DNA from: Candidatus Marinacidobacterales bacterium
GTDB lineage: Bacteria; Acidobacteriota; Vicinamibacteria; Marinacidobacterales; SMYC01
Direction of reading: 5' to 3'
NCBI GenBank assembly: GCA_965237955.1
Contig: OZ250169.1
Coordinates: 3,392,001 to 3,456,000 of the forward strand
Length of the DNA stretch: 64,000 nt
Shown here: positions 9,520 through 63,113 of the stretch, piece after piece
Position numbering within the stretch: the first letter of the stretch is position 1
Layout: every line of letters begins with the position of its first letter
Translations under genes and position numbers: made by a program
The notes under the pieces: model-generated
Databases searched by the model: none
What the model was told of the DNA's origin: nothing
Seen by the model: only the letters and a program-made list of their open reading frames with translations

Positions 9520-9624
9520 AACGCAAAGACGCGGAGGCGCAAGGACGCAAAGAGAGATCGGTCGTGACCTGTAGCCAGCGTCTTGGTGAAAATCAGTGCT
9601 TTGCGCCTTCGCGCCTTTGCGTTT
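9520..9624. repeat. Inverted 8-bp tandem-repeat array pair (cgcaaagr family), copy 1
   Basis: aacgcaaa gacgcgga ggcgcaag gacgcaaag ... ctttgcgc cttcgcgc ctttgcgttt. Confidence 0.85.
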
Positions 9625-14715: not shown

Positions 14716-14738
14716 GCCATCGGCCGTCAGCTATCGGC
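14716..14738. repeat. 7-bp tandem array (gccatcg family), single arm
   Basis: gccatcg gccgtca gctatcg gc, 12 bp after the EAL stop. Confidence 0.75.
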
Positions 14739-14941: not shown

Positions 14942-16330
14942 TTGTCAACAACCATCGATTCCATCGCCGGGTACGAGCCGAAGACGAGTTGGACCAAATC
15001 CGAGATCCTGAACACGTCGAAGGAACTGGGCGTTCGCTTCCTGCGTCTCCAGTTCACCGATATCGTCGGCGTGAACAAGAACGTCGAAGTCCCGACGCAG
15101 CAGTTCGAGAAAGCGCTCGACGGGCAGATTGCTTTCGACGGGTCCTCGATCGACGGGTTCGTACGGATCGAAGAATCCGACATGATCTTGGTACCGGATC
15201 TCGATACCTTTCGAGTCCTCCCGTTTACCCAGAGTAACGACGACGGCGGCAAGCCCGACCTGGTCGCTCGTCTGATTTGCGACATCTACCATCCCGACGG
15301 CTCTCGCTTCGAAGGTTGCCCGCGCCTTGCTTTGAAGCGGATCACCGACGAGGCCAAGGCGATGGGCTACACGATGATGGCCGGCCCCGAAGCCGAGTTT
15401 TTCCTGTTTCAGCGCGGCCCGGATGGCCGTCCCACGACGGAGTCTCCCGATCGCGGTGGCTATTTCGATCTCACGCCTGTCGACCACGGTGAAGTGGCGC
15501 GCCGCGACATCGTGAACGTGCTCGAGGCCATGGGTTTCGAAGTGGAAGCAGCGCACCATGAAGTCGCACCTGCACAGCACGAGATCGATTTCCGTTACGA
15601 AGATGCCGTGACTACCGCCGACAACGTCGCCACGTTCCGCTTCGTCGTGCGTCATGTCGCGTTGCAGCACGGATTGCATGCGACGTTCATGCCCAAGCCC
15701 GTCTTCGGTATCAACGGCTCCGGCATGCACTGCCACCAGTCGTTGTTCGAAGGAAGCGAGAATGCTTTCTTCGATCCCGATGCGGAGTATCAGCTATCGC
15801 AAACCGCGCTCCACTACATCGGTGGGATTCTGCGTCATGCCCGTGGCTTTTGCGCGCTGACCAACCCGCTGGTGAACTCGTACAAGCGGCTCGTGCCCGG
15901 ATTCGAGGCGCCCACCAACGTGGCGTGGTCGATGAAAAACCGCAGCCCGCTCGTCCGCATTCCCGACAAGCGTGGCAACAGCACACGGTGCGAAGTTCGT
16001 ATGCCCGACCCGGCCGCGAACCCTTATCTCGCGCTCGCCGCGATGTTGAAAGCCGGTCTCACCGGTGTCCAAGAGCGCATCGATCCCGGCCCCCCGGTGA
16101 ACAAGAACATCTACGAGATGAGCCAACGAGAAAAGCGCCGACTCAAGATCGACGAGCTCCCAGGCACGCTTCGCGAAGCCATCGATGCACTCGAAAAAGA
16201 CAAGGTCGTGCAGTCGGCACTAACGCCGCACATCCTGACCCACTTCATCGAAGCCAAACGCGCCGAGTGGCACGACTACATCGTGCAGGTCCATGAGTGG
16301 GAAGTGAATCGTTATTTGAGTGTTTATTGA
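14942..16330 (+). CDS. glnA: Glutamine synthetase type I
   Basis: FDGSSI, GPEAEFF, HHEVAPAQHE, FMPKP, NGSGMH, NSYKRLVPG, NRSPLVRIP, EVRMPD. Confidence 0.97.
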   Translation: MSTTIDSIAGYEPKTSWTKSEILNTSKELGVRFLRLQFTDIVGVNKNVEVPTQQFEKALDGQIAFDGSSIDGFVRIEESDMILVPDLDTFRVLPFTQSNDDGGKPDLVARLICDIYHPDGSRFEGCPRLALKRITDEAKAMGYTMMAGPEAEFFLFQRGPDGRPTTESPDRGGYFDLTPVDHGEVARRDIVNVLEAMGFEVEAAHHEVAPAQHEIDFRYEDAVTTADNVATFRFVVRHVALQHGLHATFMPKPVFGINGSGMHCHQSLFEGSENAFFDPDAEYQLSQTALHYIGGILRHARGFCALTNPLVNSYKRLVPGFEAPTNVAWSMKNRSPLVRIPDKRGNSTRCEVRMPDPAANPYLALAAMLKAGLTGVQERIDPGPPVNKNIYEMSQREKRRLKIDELPGTLREAIDALEKDKVVQSALTPHILTHFIEAKRAEWHDYIVQVHEWEVNRYLSVY

Positions 16331-16334
16331 TCCA

Positions 16335-16364
16335 GCCATCGGCCGTCGGCCATCAGCCATCGGC
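16335..16364. repeat. 7-bp tandem array, left arm flanking the four-helix-bundle gene
   Basis: gccatcg gccgtcg gccatca gccatcg gc. Confidence 0.9.
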
Positions 16365-16369
16365 TCAGG

Positions 16370-16750
16370 TCAAGCCTTCGTGCTTCGTCGCCGTGCGGTG
16401 GGTTTCTCCAGCTCTGAGCGGAGTGCGTTCAGCATTCTGCCTGTTTCCGACACAGCGGCCGACAGCGGTTCGGAGTGGCCCAGGAGAAAGCCCAGGCGTC
16501 GTGCCAGCTCGAGTTGCGTCTCGACCTCCATGAGCGAGCCGTACGCGTAGCCGACGAAACGGCTGAAGTCACGGTCGGTTCGTCGACCTCTTCCCTCGGC
16601 AAGGTTCGACGGTATCGAAACAGCTGCCCGTCGGAGTTGTTGACTCAGCACGAACTTCTCCGCCGGAGGGAATTCACTCGTAGCTCGGTAGACCTGTTCG
16701 GCCAGATTCATCGCTGCGTGCCACACTCGCAAATCCTTGAAATGTCCCAT
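16370..16750 (-). CDS. Four helix bundle protein (TIGR02436 / 23S rRNA IVP / bAvd-like)
   Basis: FKDLRVW, FPPAEKFVLSQQLRRAAVSIPSNLAEG, AYGSLMEVETQL. Confidence 0.93.
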   Translation of the reverse strand: MGHFKDLRVWHAAMNLAEQVYRATSEFPPAEKFVLSQQLRRAAVSIPSNLAEGRGRRTDRDFSRFVGYAYGSLMEVETQLELARRLGFLLGHSEPLSAAVSETGRMLNALRSELEKPTARRRSTKA

Positions 16751-16796
16751 ACGAAGTCAAGACGATTTTTTCGTACGCCAACCTCCCTCGAAGAGA

Positions 16797-16824
16797 GGCC
16801 GATGGCTGATGGCCGATGGCCGAT
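16797..16824. repeat. 7-bp tandem array, inverted right arm flanking the four-helix-bundle gene
   Basis: ggc cgatggc tgatggc cgatggc cgat, the reverse complement of the left-arm unit. Confidence 0.9.
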
Positions 16825-17550
16825 CTAGTAGACCTCTAAAGTCACGTACGTCAACTCACCCTGACGCTCGACCTGCAAAACGATCGGGTCACCAGGATAG
16901 TACCGAGCAATCGCTGCTTTCAGCTCGGTGAGGCTCGAGACGTCGAGTCGATTCACCGAATAGATCACGTCTCCGGGAAGAAGGCCTTGACCTTGCCACG
17001 GTTGCGCTTCGCGTGCCCGCGCGGCGACGATGACGCCTCGGTTTCTGCGAAGGCCGGCGAACATCCCGGCGAGATCGTCGTCGAGGTCGATGCCGAGGAT
17101 TCCCAGTTGAAGCACGAGGTTTTGATCGGGGCGTACCAGGCTCGCGAACCGATCGGGGTGATGACGTCGTGCTGCCACTTCCACCGACAAGACGAGCTTT
17201 TCGGTGCCGCGGAGAACTGCGATCTCGACGCTCTCGCCGACACGCCGTTGATAAATGTTGACGCGTAGCTGGCGTCCGTTCTCCATGACCTTGCCGTCGA
17301 TGGTCGAGACGATGTCGCCTGGTAGGAGCCCCGCGGCCGCGGCCGTTCCGCCGGGAGCGACGTCCGCGAGGATAGCGCCCCAGTCTCGTTCGAGGCCGAG
17401 TCCGCGCGCCATCAAACGGTGTGATCGTCTGCGCATCGATGCCGATCTCTCCGCGGTGCACTCGACCGGTGGCTCGGATCTGTTCGAAAACGTTCTTGAC
17501 GATGTTACTCGGTGCGGCGAAACCCAGGCCCTCGTTCCCTCCCGAGAACT
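16825..17550 (-). pseudogene. HtrA/DegP serine protease C-terminal remnant (end of protease domain plus two PDZ); frameshift near 17418
   Basis: SGGNEGLGFAAPSN...GRVHRGEIGIDAQTITP, then LMARGLGL...GLLPGDIV...GLLPGDVI; the catalytic triad region is absent. Confidence 0.85.
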
Positions 17551-17621
17551 GGTTCGAAGAGCTCGAGCGACTCGTCCCGACGGACAACTAGCCAGGGGCG
17601 TCCCCCGTACACGCGGGTGCT

Positions 17622-20196: not shown

Positions 20197-21558
20197 ATGC
20201 ATCGATCGCTGTTGCTTGTCGCGCTCCTTGTTTCGCCTGTCGCCGTCAGCGCTCAAGAGGACGACGACAAGCGGAAGCCGACCAGCCGGCAGGAGATCCG
20301 AGAGCGAGAGCGCGAGAAGAAAGCGGAGAACCTCGAGCCCTACGAGGTTTCCGACGCCGAAAAGAGACTCCTGGGTTGGGAGAAAAAGAAGTTCCCGCAG
20401 AACTGGCTCGTCAATGGCTGGCGTGGATTCCGGCCTGTGTTCGGCGGCATGCCTTCGGGCTCGGGAACGGTCATCGGTGGCGGCTATATCCACGGACTCG
20501 AAGCCCAGTACTTCCAGTTTCAGGCCAACGCGCGGTGGTCGACCAAGGGTTACACGACAGCGGACGCCGAGGTCGTCCTCCCGCCACCGCAAATCGGCCG
20601 TCGCGTCGAGCTCAAAGTTCGCGGTGAGTACCGTGACCTGACCGCGCTGAGTTTCTACGGGATTGGCAACGACTCCAGCCTCGAGAACGAGTCGTCCTTC
20701 CTGTTGAACGACCAGAGCGCGACAGCCTACTTCTGGCTCAATCCGCGCGGTCTTTTGTCGCTAGTCCCCTGTATCAGAACAAACTAGATAAAGCAGAGCT
20801 TGCCGAAACCATTCTAAGTGCATGAATCTTATGAATCTTATGGGCTGGCGAAAAGCCTAACTTTGTATAGTAATCAAAGATCCAGGGGACTAGGCGTACA
20901 GGGAGGGTTTCTTACCTCGGACGCCGACCGAGGCACGGACGCGCCGTCGATCGAGGAGGTGTTCACCCCGGAACAGGTGCCGGGCTCGGACGCCCTGCGA
21001 ACGGACTACATCGTGACCGGCGGCTGGATCGAGTTCGACATTCGAGACAAGTGGGCGAGCCCGCCGGTCGGGATCGTGGCGCGGGTTACCGGCGAGCGGT
21101 ATGAAGACACGAAACTAGACGAGTTCGACTTTACCCGTGTCGTCGCCGACATCAAAGGCTACATCCCTCTCGGTACGCGCAATCGCATTCTCGCACTCCG
21201 ATTGCGCACGTCGCACTCGATCGATGACGACGACGACCAAGTGCCCTTCTATTTGATGGAAACTCTCGGCGGTGCCAAAACGATTCGCGGCTACGACGAG
21301 TTTCGATTTCGGGATGCGCGCAACCTCTACGTTTCCGCCGAGTATCGTTGGGAAGTGTGGCCGTTCGTCGACTTCTCACTCTTTTTCGACGCCGGCAAAG
21401 TCTTCGACGATCTCGATGACTTCAATTTCGACAAGATGCATACCGGGTATGGGGTCGGCTTGAGAATCCATACGCCCGGGGGCGTGGCGTTTCGCATGGA
21501 TGTGGCTCACAGTACCGAGGGGTTCAAGCTGCATATCAGTGGGGGGCCGACATTTTGA
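20197..21558 (+). pseudogene. BamA/TamA (Omp85) family outer-membrane protein interrupted by a MITE
   Basis: Signal peptide; LGGAKTIRGY, FFDAGKV, GYGVGLR, terminal F. Removing 129 bp (20765-20893) restores ...GLLSLGVQGGF in frame. Confidence 0.85.
20765..20889. mobile_element. 125-bp MITE with 11-bp terminal inverted repeats and CTAG duplication
   Basis: ctag|tcccctgtatc ... gatccagggga|ctag (10/11 match); AT-rich; no transposase. Confidence 0.88.
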
Positions 21559-23221
21559 TGCGTGGTACTGGTCTTCTACTTTGGATGGTGCTCTTCGCGA
21601 CTCCTGTCGGAGCTCAGAAGTTCTATCCCGACGATCCGCTCTTGGTGGACGACGACAAGCTCGACGTAGCTAACCAGCCCGCTGAGATCGAGCTTTCCGA
21701 CATGTACGACCGCTTCGGCCACATGTTCAAGGATTGGGGCGCGTCCCCCATGGGGAGTGAGGCGAGAAACGCCAACACACTCGACGAAGTGCCCGACAGC
21801 AGCTGGTTCACGAACCGCCACGGGGCACGGCGTATGAGTATCGACGAGCTCACCCGTGGGCCGAACCGCGGGGCCGGACCGGATCCGAACGAGACGTGGA
21901 CGGTGTTCGCCAGCAAGAGGCAGGGGCTCACGCCCGGATTTCAAATCTACGACGAGAAAGACGACCGCTACGTTATCAAGCTCGACCCGGTCGAAATCTC
22001 CGAGCTCGCCTCGGCGGCCGAGGTCATCGCGACCAAGATTTTCTACGCGCTCGGCTACAACGCTCCGGAGAACTACATCGTCCGCGTGAACCCGGAGCAG
22101 TTCACCATCGAGCCCGGGACCGAGATCGAAGACAGCTTCGGCGACAAGATGCCTCTGTCAGATTGGCGTTTCCGACGCTCGATCCGCCTCGTGCCTCTGC
22201 TCGAGGACGGGACGATGCGTGTCGTCGCGAGCAAGTACTTGTCCGGGATCCCTCTCGGTCCATTCCGGTACTACGAGACGCGGAGCGACGATCCCAACGA
22301 CGTGATCGACACGAGGATCGGCGCGAGCTCCGGGGCTTGAGACTGTTCGCAGCGTGGCTGAACCACGACGACACCCGCGCTCAGAATACGCAAGACTCCT
22401 GGGTAGAAGAAAACGGCAAACACTATGTACGGCACTATCTTCTGGACTATGGTTCCACGTTCGGGAGTGGGTCCGTCGACATGCAACGCGCCGAGTTGGG
22501 GTTCAACTACGCGATAGACTTCAAGGAAATGAAACGGAACCTGTTGGGATTCGGTTTCCGTGTCCCCGAGTACCGCCACGCGAAGTGGCCGCCGTACCCC
22601 GAGTACGAGGCAATAGGTCGATGGGAAGGTGAGCTCTTCGACTGCGAAGGTTGGCGAAACGATTACCCGAACCCCGCGTTCCGGCGGATGACGGCGCGCG
22701 ATGCGTTCTGGGCAGCGAAGATCGTGATGCGGTTCACCCGCGAAGAGCTCCAGGCCATTGTCGAGACCGGCGAATATACCAATCCGGACAATCCGGTGTA
22801 CTTTCTCGAGGTACTCCTCGAGCGCCAGCGGAAATGCGGCCGCTTCGGCATCAACGCCATCAATCCGCTCGACGAGTTTCGTCTCGACAGCGATGTGCTC
22901 GAGTTCACGAATCTTTCGGAGCACTACGGCTTTGTCAACGCCGACACCCGCTACAACGTCTCGCGGTCGAGCTACGACAACGAGCGCGACGAGCGGCGGA
23001 CGCTGAGCGATCCGGTAACGCAGTCGCGGACGCGCATCGAGCTTCCCGATGGCGATGGCAACTTCCTGCTCGTGGAGATCCGCTCGTTGAACGAGGACTA
23101 CCCGCACTGGAGCACGGCCGTCGGCGTCTATCTTCGACCTGAGGGCCCCAAGGGCGCGGGCTACGAAATCGTCGGCATCGACCGCGAGAGTCCGGAAGAA
23201 TCGACGTTCCCGATGAACTAG
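21558..23221 (+). CDS. Secreted hypothetical protein with atypical kinase-like (HipA/PI3K/CotH-type) motifs; frameshift near 22310
   Basis: Signal peptide; YVIKLD, AAEVIA, WLNHDDTRAQN, YLLDYGSTFG; two ORFs joined at gtgatcgacacgaggat. Confidence 0.6.
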
Positions 23222-24895: not shown

Positions 24896-24897
24896 TC

Positions 24898-24929
24898 GGC
24901 ATTGGGCATTCGGCATCCGGCATTCGGGA
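24898..24929. repeat. 7-bp tandem array variant (ggcattc), single arm
   Basis: ggcattg ggcattc ggcatcc ggcattc, 2 bp after the pckA stop. Confidence 0.75.
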
Positions 24930-24980
24930 TCTCTTCGTGCACCCTCTTGTCATCGTGCCTTCGTGCAGAGAGTCAGTCGA

Positions 24981-25735: not shown

Positions 25736-25812
25736 AACGCAAAGACGCAAAGGCGCAAGGGCGCAAGGTGAAGCGCCTCCGGCGCCGATTCTCTCTTTGC
25801 GCCCTTGCGTTT
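25736..25812. repeat. Inverted 8-bp array pair, copy 2
   Basis: aacgcaaa gacgcaaa ggcgcaag ggcgcaagg ... ctttgcgc ccttgcgt tt between convergent genes. Confidence 0.85.
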
Positions 25813-36450: not shown

Positions 36451-36483
36451 AACGCAAAGACGCAAGGGCGCAAAGACGCCAAG
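36451..36483. repeat. 8-bp array, left arm only (copy 3), abutting the IS
   Basis: aacgcaaa gacgcaag ggcgcaaa gacgccaag; no inverted partner. Confidence 0.8.
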
Positions 36484-50077: not shown

Positions 50078-50193
50078 AAAAACGAACGCAAAGGCGCCAA
50101 GACGCAAAGGCGCAAAGGGGCCGAATCGAGTACAGCAAAGCGAACTCGAACCCTTTGCGTCCTTGCGCCTTGGCGCCTTTGCGTTCGTTTTTC
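50078..50193. repeat. Inverted 8-bp array pair, copy 4 (near-perfect ~40-bp stem)
   Basis: gaaaaacgaacgcaaaggcgccaagacgcaaaggcgcaaaggg ... ccctttgcgtccttgcgccttggcgcctttgcgttcgtttttc. Confidence 0.92.
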
Positions 50194-52089: not shown

Positions 52090-52189
52090 CAACGCAAAGG
52101 CGCAAGGACGCAAAGACGCAAAGAAAGAGCAAGCGCGTGAGCCCGATTGAGCTCTCTTTGCGCCTCCGCGCCTTTGCGCCTTTGCGTTG
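52090..52189. repeat. Inverted 8-bp array pair, copy 5
   Basis: caacgcaaaggcgcaaggacgcaaagacgcaaaga ... tctttgcgcctccgcgcctttgcgcctttgcgttg. Confidence 0.9.
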
Positions 52190-63036: not shown

Positions 63037-63098
63037 GCCATCAGCCGTCAGCCGTCAGCCATCAGCTGACTGCGGGCCGATGGCCGATGGCCGATGGC
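63037..63098. repeat. Inverted 7-bp array pair without cargo gene
   Basis: gccatca gccgtca gccgtca gccatca - 13 bp - cgatggc cgatggc cgatggc. Confidence 0.9.
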
Positions 63099-63113
63099 CG
63101 GGGGCGGTTTGAC

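Follow-up and report, generated by a model that had tools for sequence, protein, structure and literature searches.

A gene for a 126-amino-acid four-helix-bundle protein lies in this 8.13-Mb genome (G000) between inverted tandem arrays of a 7-bp unit, GCCATCR, and is likely the protein-coding master of a dispersed family of such arrays. The gene is an insert held between inverted arms, and about 160 gene-free arrays of the same unit stand behind stop codons; taken together, these point to a master gene. The gene-plus-array system is real and well supported. We give roughly one chance in two to the proposal that the four-helix protein binds the arms as RNA or single-stranded DNA and helps to copy arm-bounded pieces behind stop codons, with the chemistry coming from another enzyme.

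The cassette between glnA and htrA

The cassette lies in a window of 64,000 nucleotides. The features concerned are as follows.

14716..14736, + strand: single degenerate GCCATCR array, 12 bp behind the stop of an EAL-domain gene
14942..16330, + strand: glnA, type I glutamine synthetase (profile matches), host flank
16328..16364, + strand: left arm, GCCATCR heptamer array of four units plus GC, with a degenerate outer GATCC unit
16370..16750, − strand: four-helix-bundle gene, 126 aa, TIGR02436/PF05635, pI 10.3
16751..16796, − strand: leader of the four-helix gene, 46 bp
16797..16824, − strand: right arm, inverted heptamer array (GCCATCR on the − strand)
16825..17436, − strand: PDZ half of an HtrA/DegP-type protease gene, host flank, with a frame break upstream
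63037..63100, no strand: gene-less inverted pair of GCCATCR arms with a 13-bp spacer

As the sequence-only reading had proposed, the gene and its leader are enclosed by two inverted heptamer arrays, and the unit occupies the space between two convergent stop codons. The glnA stop ends at 16330 and the stop of the htrA-like ORF is at 16825-16827, so the cassette fills a gap of 494 bp. The degenerate GATCC unit of the left arm overlaps the TGA stop of glnA, and the right arm directly adjoins the TAG stop of htrA. Tandem Repeats Finder reported the left arm as GCCATCG ×4.3 at 16335-16364 and the right arm as GGCCGAT ×4.0 at 16797-16824. The arms can pair as a 28-bp stem with a computed energy of −63 kcal/mol on the + strand, and on both strands the whole cassette folded better than every one of 100 shuffles (z = −3.8 and −3.7). 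The leader contains the motif GGAGGTT-N14-TCGTC, which also precedes the homologous genes of the related genomes G017 and G018. We take it to resemble an ECF-type promoter, and it is a possible promoter candidate; a sequence scan found no sigma-70 promoter at the locus. RNA run X15 gave no long clean piece over the cassette. Frame breaks at 16825-17587 (the htrA-type gene) and 20212-22340 (neighbouring genes) may be assembly indels or pseudogenes.

The 126-aa protein scored 115.3 bits on TIGR02436 (cut-off 24) and 119.1 bits on PF05635 (cut-off 33.8), the only family that matched it in a Pfam search. To our knowledge, TIGR02436 proteins have no known function. A profile search found the PF05635 gene once in the genome, and no second copy of the gene or of the cassette interior was found there. 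The predicted structure has four helices (pLDDT 91.3), and its fold appears closest to Xcc0516 and BT_0352, followed by Avd, the RNA-binding accessory protein of diversity-generating retroelements (DGRs). The model matched 2GSC (Xcc0516, five chains) with Z 19.8 and rmsd 2.1 over 112 aligned residues, and 2RLD with Z 17.2; the E value of the 2GSC match was 3.9e-24. The relation to Avd suggested earlier is borne out by the modelled fold (Z 14-15, rmsd about 2, 105-111 aligned, 10% identity), and the score on the Avd model NF033474 was 21.5 bits, below the cut-off of 80. Xcc0516 is described as a homopentamer in PMC4990558, and by analogy with 2GSC the 126-aa protein is predicted to be a pentamer. 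It matched no HUH, DDE or reverse transcriptase (RT) family. The invariant residues (P28, Q38, A42, S45, N49, E52, G53, F65, A69, G71, S72, E75 and T78) suggest no recognised catalytic motif.

Five proteins (P0001-P0005) are 89-96% identical to the 126-aa protein. Beyond this group the closest named homologues, from Thiodictyon and Lamprocystis, are 64-65% identical, more than the best match on the putative G018 contig (57%), and these identities hint at a lateral arrival of the gene. A metagenome scan found no relative above 60% identity. The four-helix genes of G017 and G018 gave a dN/dS of 0.77, which may indicate weak constraint, judged on this one gene pair.

The cassette is a discrete insert between glnA and htrA. 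Across 16 relatives 17 glnA loci were compared, and not one carried the four-helix gene; an htrA homologue stands beside glnA at 11 of the 17, and in four of them the stop-to-stop gap is 2-10 bp. The 24 public runs listed are all contigs, a form that does not reveal RNA ends. One of 687 bases, with 76 differences, reads across the glnA-htrA site, cassette included, so the cassette has not moved in this lineage for some time. In another public run the right arm is longer by one heptamer. Read joints that skip 16359-16804 were considered as excision and set aside; their sides are shorter than 30 bases, and they are best read as gene-less pairs from other loci.

Filled, deleted and empty states were found together at another site. 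G017 and G018 carry a filled four-helix cassette with GCATTCA arms; at the same site G005 has lost about 315 bp of the gene and kept both arms, and G008 has the flanking genes and no cassette. On comparison of these sequences the G005 relic is evidently an internal deletion of a filled cassette. The glnA-htrA junction of G017 holds an empty pair of that genome's own arm type. Loci L056, L063 and L069 differ in what stands behind the glnA stop: we observed one pair of heptamers, one CCCTCTCCC palindrome and one octamer-like pair. The junction took unrelated hairpin repeats independently in relatives.

The array family and its association with four-helix genes

The genome contains 160 GCCATCR arrays of at least three units, and none appeared in three of three trinucleotide-block shuffles. 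Array length is nearly fixed, with four units in 102 of the 160 and more than five in only two. On the gene calls made in this analysis 152 arrays are intergenic. Just seven of these lie in divergent junctions (background 1144/6559). On their outer side, 74 of the 152 have a stop codon no more than 20 bp away; repositioning the same arrays inside their own gaps gave an expectation of 26.3 ± 3.9. Every close pair faces inward (28 inward, 0 outward). The pairs comprise the cassette and 27 gene-less pairs, which answers the earlier question of filled and empty pairs: one pair is filled by the four-helix gene. Single arrays number 106 against the 27 pairs, and 12 of the singles have a degenerate partner. 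Singles and pairs carry the same number of mismatches per unit (0.30 and 0.30), with no extra decay in singles. Unit variation is almost confined to positions 4 and 7.

Gene-less arm-bounded elements were copied as units. The inner flanks of 30 of the 160 arrays fall into nine homology clusters, up to 94% identical, and the gene-less pairs include homologous spacers at unrelated sites; outer flanks cluster for just two arrays, and the homology of copied elements stops at the outer arm edge. Such elements are about 145 bp long (arm, spacer of 85-92 bp, arm). Their spacers in G000 have no clear match to the four-helix gene, and we rejected them as strong hairpins, since only four of 23 folded below z −2 (mean −0.8). 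Outer-flank direct repeats of the 28 pairs averaged 3.79 in length against 3.79 ± 0.16 expected, giving no sign of a target-site duplication, although one could have disappeared from old copies. Matches to the three-unit pattern number 200 in G000; of 40 relatives, 38 have none and the other two have five and one, so the family expanded in the lineage whose gene carries GCCATCR. One inward pair of 715 bp encloses an ABC-ATPase-like gene, as read from the sequence, and two further inward pairs span 1.5 kb.

Two parts of the sequence-only reading lost ground here. It had suggested that the protein might recognise a long RNA stem formed by the arms, and this idea loses support: complementarity within pairs does not exceed that of shuffled partners (490 against 496.5 matches, of 567), selection for perfect arm pairing was not seen among the GCCATCR pairs, and most arrays are single. 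It had also proposed the cassette as a mobile or self-propagating, autonomous unit. Mobility agrees with the discrete insert and with the copied gene-less pairs. Autonomy is not supported: the gene is single-copy, it persists at the same site in the divergent 687-base contig, neither a catalytic motif nor a target-site duplication was found, and some genomes keep arrays although they have no intact gene. Adenine-specific mutagenesis of the DGR type, prompted by the adenines at positions 4 and 7, was considered as the origin of the unit variation and rejected, as the GCATYCA family keeps an adenine fixed while a pyrimidine varies.

GCATYCA is a third repeat family in G000, with 64 arrays and 13 inward pairs and a member in the window at 24896-24931. 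It has no gene of its own in G000, and its unit fits the arms of the four-helix cassettes in G017 and G018. GCATYCA arrays are also present in G005, G009 and G012, genomes with no PF05635 match. The first 1.2 Mb of G000 (C1:1-1200000) holds none of the 224 heptamer arrays and five of the 116 octamer arrays described below, and its GC content and gene density are lower; it may be a foreign or mobile-rich region, or may reflect the assembly.

The octamer arrays surround a different gene. The sole GxxExxY gene of G000 (TIGR04256, split in two frames) is at L002 (G000:C1:4609201-4609680) and stands between inverted ACGCAAAG octamer arrays. We take the GxxExxY protein to have a PD-(D/E)XK nuclease fold. 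G000 has 116 octamer arrays with 40 inward pairs, no outward pair and the same stop-codon bias. Members in the window are at 9521-9622, 25737-25768, 36452-36483, 50086-50184 and 52092-52186, gene-less inverted pairs included. A strict arm call was obtained at six of 30 GxxExxY loci, all of period 8 or 9 and never 7; shorter inverted CACAGAG-type arms are visible at many more of the 30.

Enrichment of heptamers around four-helix genes had been put forward as a test, and it was found well beyond this genome. Of 78 genome loci, 44 have the homologous gene flanked by inverted tandem arms, as do 39 of 68 metagenome loci, after two of 80 genome loci (short flanks) and 12 of 80 metagenome loci had been dropped. 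In total 83 of 146 loci passed the strict arm call and 63 failed it. Direct-orientation arms occurred at one genome locus and one metagenome locus. Among 1276 called G000 genes of 90-160 aa, only one had inverted arms, the four-helix gene itself, and swapped flanks gave 41 of 765. The 83 armed loci show 51 different units, with a median of 4.3 units per arm (quartiles 3.6-5.4) and a period of 7 in 74 and 8 in nine. Period 7 goes mostly with four-helix genes and periods 8 and 9 with GxxExxY, so the period follows the gene family. The neighbours are varied host genes. Of 156 neighbouring ORFs 126 were scanned; 47 had no family, and no RT, transposase or integrase was found among those scanned. 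A divergent four-helix subgroup at L008, L011 and L013 is flanked by hexamer arrays of the CCCGTT/GGGAAC type and not by heptamers. Across the genomes examined, arrays were in excess beside four-helix genes and no relative kept the gene at the glnA locus without them.

The four-helix gene was present in 170 of 301 genomes of a phylum sample. Two heptamer types were counted, with G000 and G063 left out; the second type had served as a backward control, turned out to be a genuine family and was included post hoc. Arrays occurred in 50 of the 168 genomes that have the gene and in five of the 131 that lack it. The association holds with and without GxxExxY, whose presence also raises the array rate. 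Among genomes with the four-helix gene, arrays occurred in 35 of 80 with GxxExxY and 15 of 88 without; among those lacking the four-helix gene the counts were four of 31 and one of 100. Loci and genomes include kin, so these counts overstate independence.

Comparison with known systems

Like RAYT-REPIN systems as described in PMC3116915, the family has one gene flanked by its own repeats, many extragenic gene-less inverted doublets with variable spacers, a lineage-specific expansion and several families per genome. The RAYT, however, is an HUH Y1 transposase, whereas the protein here is a four-helix bundle with no PF01797 match. REPIN arms are palindromic REPs and the arms here are tandem heptamer arrays; REPIN doublets predominate and are better conserved than singlets in the account of PMC3116915, whereas here singles dominate and are equally decayed. 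The cassette and its arrays are RAYT-REPIN in layout and depart from that class on two points of membership.

Like the S23p intervening sequence (IVS) in the 23S rRNA of Coxiella burnetii, as presented in PMC4990558, the cassette encodes a protein of the same family. The two are of similar build, 428-444 nt against about 490, both with a 28-bp terminal stem, with tandem heptamers ahead of the start codon and with variation in unit number (PMC4990558). The Coxiella element sits in rRNA, but the cassette stands between two protein genes, outside any 23S or 16S rRNA gene and with no Rfam match at 16200-16950. The account of the Coxiella IVS in PMC4990558 describes no genome-wide family of gene-less arrays, whereas G000 has one.

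The 126-aa protein shares with Avd, as reported in 10.1101/2023.10.23.563531, its modelled fold, its basic character and pentameric relatives. No RT and no template or variable repeat lies near the cassette, and the cassette is not a DGR. The lack of an adjacent transposase or RT noted earlier was upheld, the nearest PF00078 match being about 180 kb away and no PF01797 match of G000 lying at the cassette. As in insertion sequences (ISs) and MITEs, inverted arms bound both filled and empty units; unlike them, the units show no target-site duplication. No transposase was found in cis, and an enzyme might act in trans.

Cyanobacterial STRR likewise consist of short heptamer arrays scattered over gene junctions, with a patchy occurrence among lineages, and we know of no means by which dispersed heptamer repeats spread. 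The TAACTGA sets of Beggiatoaceae (PMC4679880) share this distribution, but they lie mostly before start codons and the GCCATCR arrays behind stop codons. The main text of PMC4679880 has no mention of 'four helix', 'intervening' or 'S23'.

Explanations and meaning

The proposal to which we gave about an even chance may work as follows. A basic Avd-fold pentamer would bind heptamer arms of four to five units, in the form of RNA or single-stranded DNA, and would assist the copying of arm-bounded pieces to sites just behind stop codons, and another enzyme would supply the cutting or copying chemistry. One heptamer unit might be read per pentamer subunit, as the arms of four to five units with fixed core positions suggest. 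We infer the pentamer, the binding, the reading of one unit per subunit and the role in mobility. As described in 10.1101/2023.10.23.563531, Avd is not catalytic; five protomers grip one RNA stem-loop, and flipped RNA bases sit in crevices between protomers.

The arrays could instead be 3'-UTR signals kept by the host, either protein sites or RNase III stems, with the protein binding the arrays and its own message and the arrays spreading by ordinary recombination without it. Under such RNA control one can understand why the arrays keep close to stop codons with a single polarity and are scarce in divergent junctions, why singles are as conserved as pairs, and why variation is confined to positions 4 and 7, as in a selected binding site. 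The interval between glnA and htrA has no convincing intrinsic terminator (1 terminator-like site against 0.7 expected), and the Coxiella IVS stem, according to PMC4990558, has tandem heptamers and is cut by RNase III. But host signals would leave unexplained both the arrival of the gene as an arm-bounded insert at unrelated housekeeping junctions and the copying of whole gene-less elements to new sites, and the arrays show no bias of G-U over A-C by transcription direction. We regard this reading as unlikely on its own terms, although RNA control and a master gene can be compatible.

Alternatively, the gene rides between arms that are spread by the GxxExxY nuclease, a Y1 transposase, an RT or an IS, and takes no part in the spreading. 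G000 has five RT matches, 25 Y1 transposase (PF01797) matches and the GxxExxY gene; arrays outlive the four-helix gene, and constraint on the one gene pair may be weak. Genome G015, with 45 PF05635 matches, offers an example, as its four-helix gene with a 3' heptamer array is cargo of a multicopy element:

L033:7919-10086: G015 multicopy 2.17-kb element, with an ORF of about 520 aa, the four-helix gene, the 3' heptamer array and a REP-like palindrome

The element ends at CTCTGT, the core of GxxExxY-type arms, and some copies are head to tail or interrupted by other ISs. We rejected the 45-copy burst as proof of autonomy for the same reason, the gene being cargo beside another ORF. That ORF had no Pfam or NCBIfam match and has no match in G000, which speaks against the same vehicle here. 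Arrays also keep away from the candidate vehicles of G000, with any array within 1.5 kb at none of four RT sites and one of 20 Y1 sites. The period of the arms follows the gene family (7 at 74/83 four-helix loci, 8 or 9 at 6/6 GxxExxY loci with a strict arm call), and the effect of the gene persists in genomes without GxxExxY. A mere passenger is, in our judgement, likewise unlikely. That slippage repeats flank the gene by chance is more improbable by far. Repeats of 7 nt are common in bacteria and are linked to polymerase slippage in PMC4679880, and the unit number did change in one run; slippage would not, however, give a fixed array length, strictly inward pairs in three families (28/28, 13/13 and 40/40), or inverted arms so much more often at homologous loci than at control genes.

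A wider form of the proposal that the protein binds the arms and helps to copy them is possible but doubtful. Here the system would belong to a new class of bacterial replicator, in which a non-catalytic Avd-fold pentamer reads four to five units, one per subunit, recruits a host or borrowed enzyme and copies arm-bounded RNA or DNA to gene 3' ends. Both the ORF-bearing rRNA intervening sequences and the heptamer repeats that stand unexplained in many phyla might trace back to such a class; GxxExxY with its 8- and 9-mers would be a parallel version with an unrelated protein, and the four-helix protein might be ancestral to the DGR accessory protein or an offshoot of it.

Heptamers beside a four-helix gene are already in print for the Coxiella IVS (PMC4990558). 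A literature search that covered few subscription papers and no supplements found no paper on a four-helix gene with a genome-wide array family. G000 adds one gene set against 160 arrays, the test of stop-codon polarity, the series of filled, deleted and absent states at a single locus, a stratified comparison of genomes, and findings that speak against simple autonomy. With a lone gene and 160 arrays to match, it offers a clean and cheap test system for binding and movement. If the protein does bind and move the arrays, the TIGR02436 family would gain a function, rRNA intervening sequences would be tied to dispersed heptamer repeats, and a REPIN-like system would be running without a RAYT.
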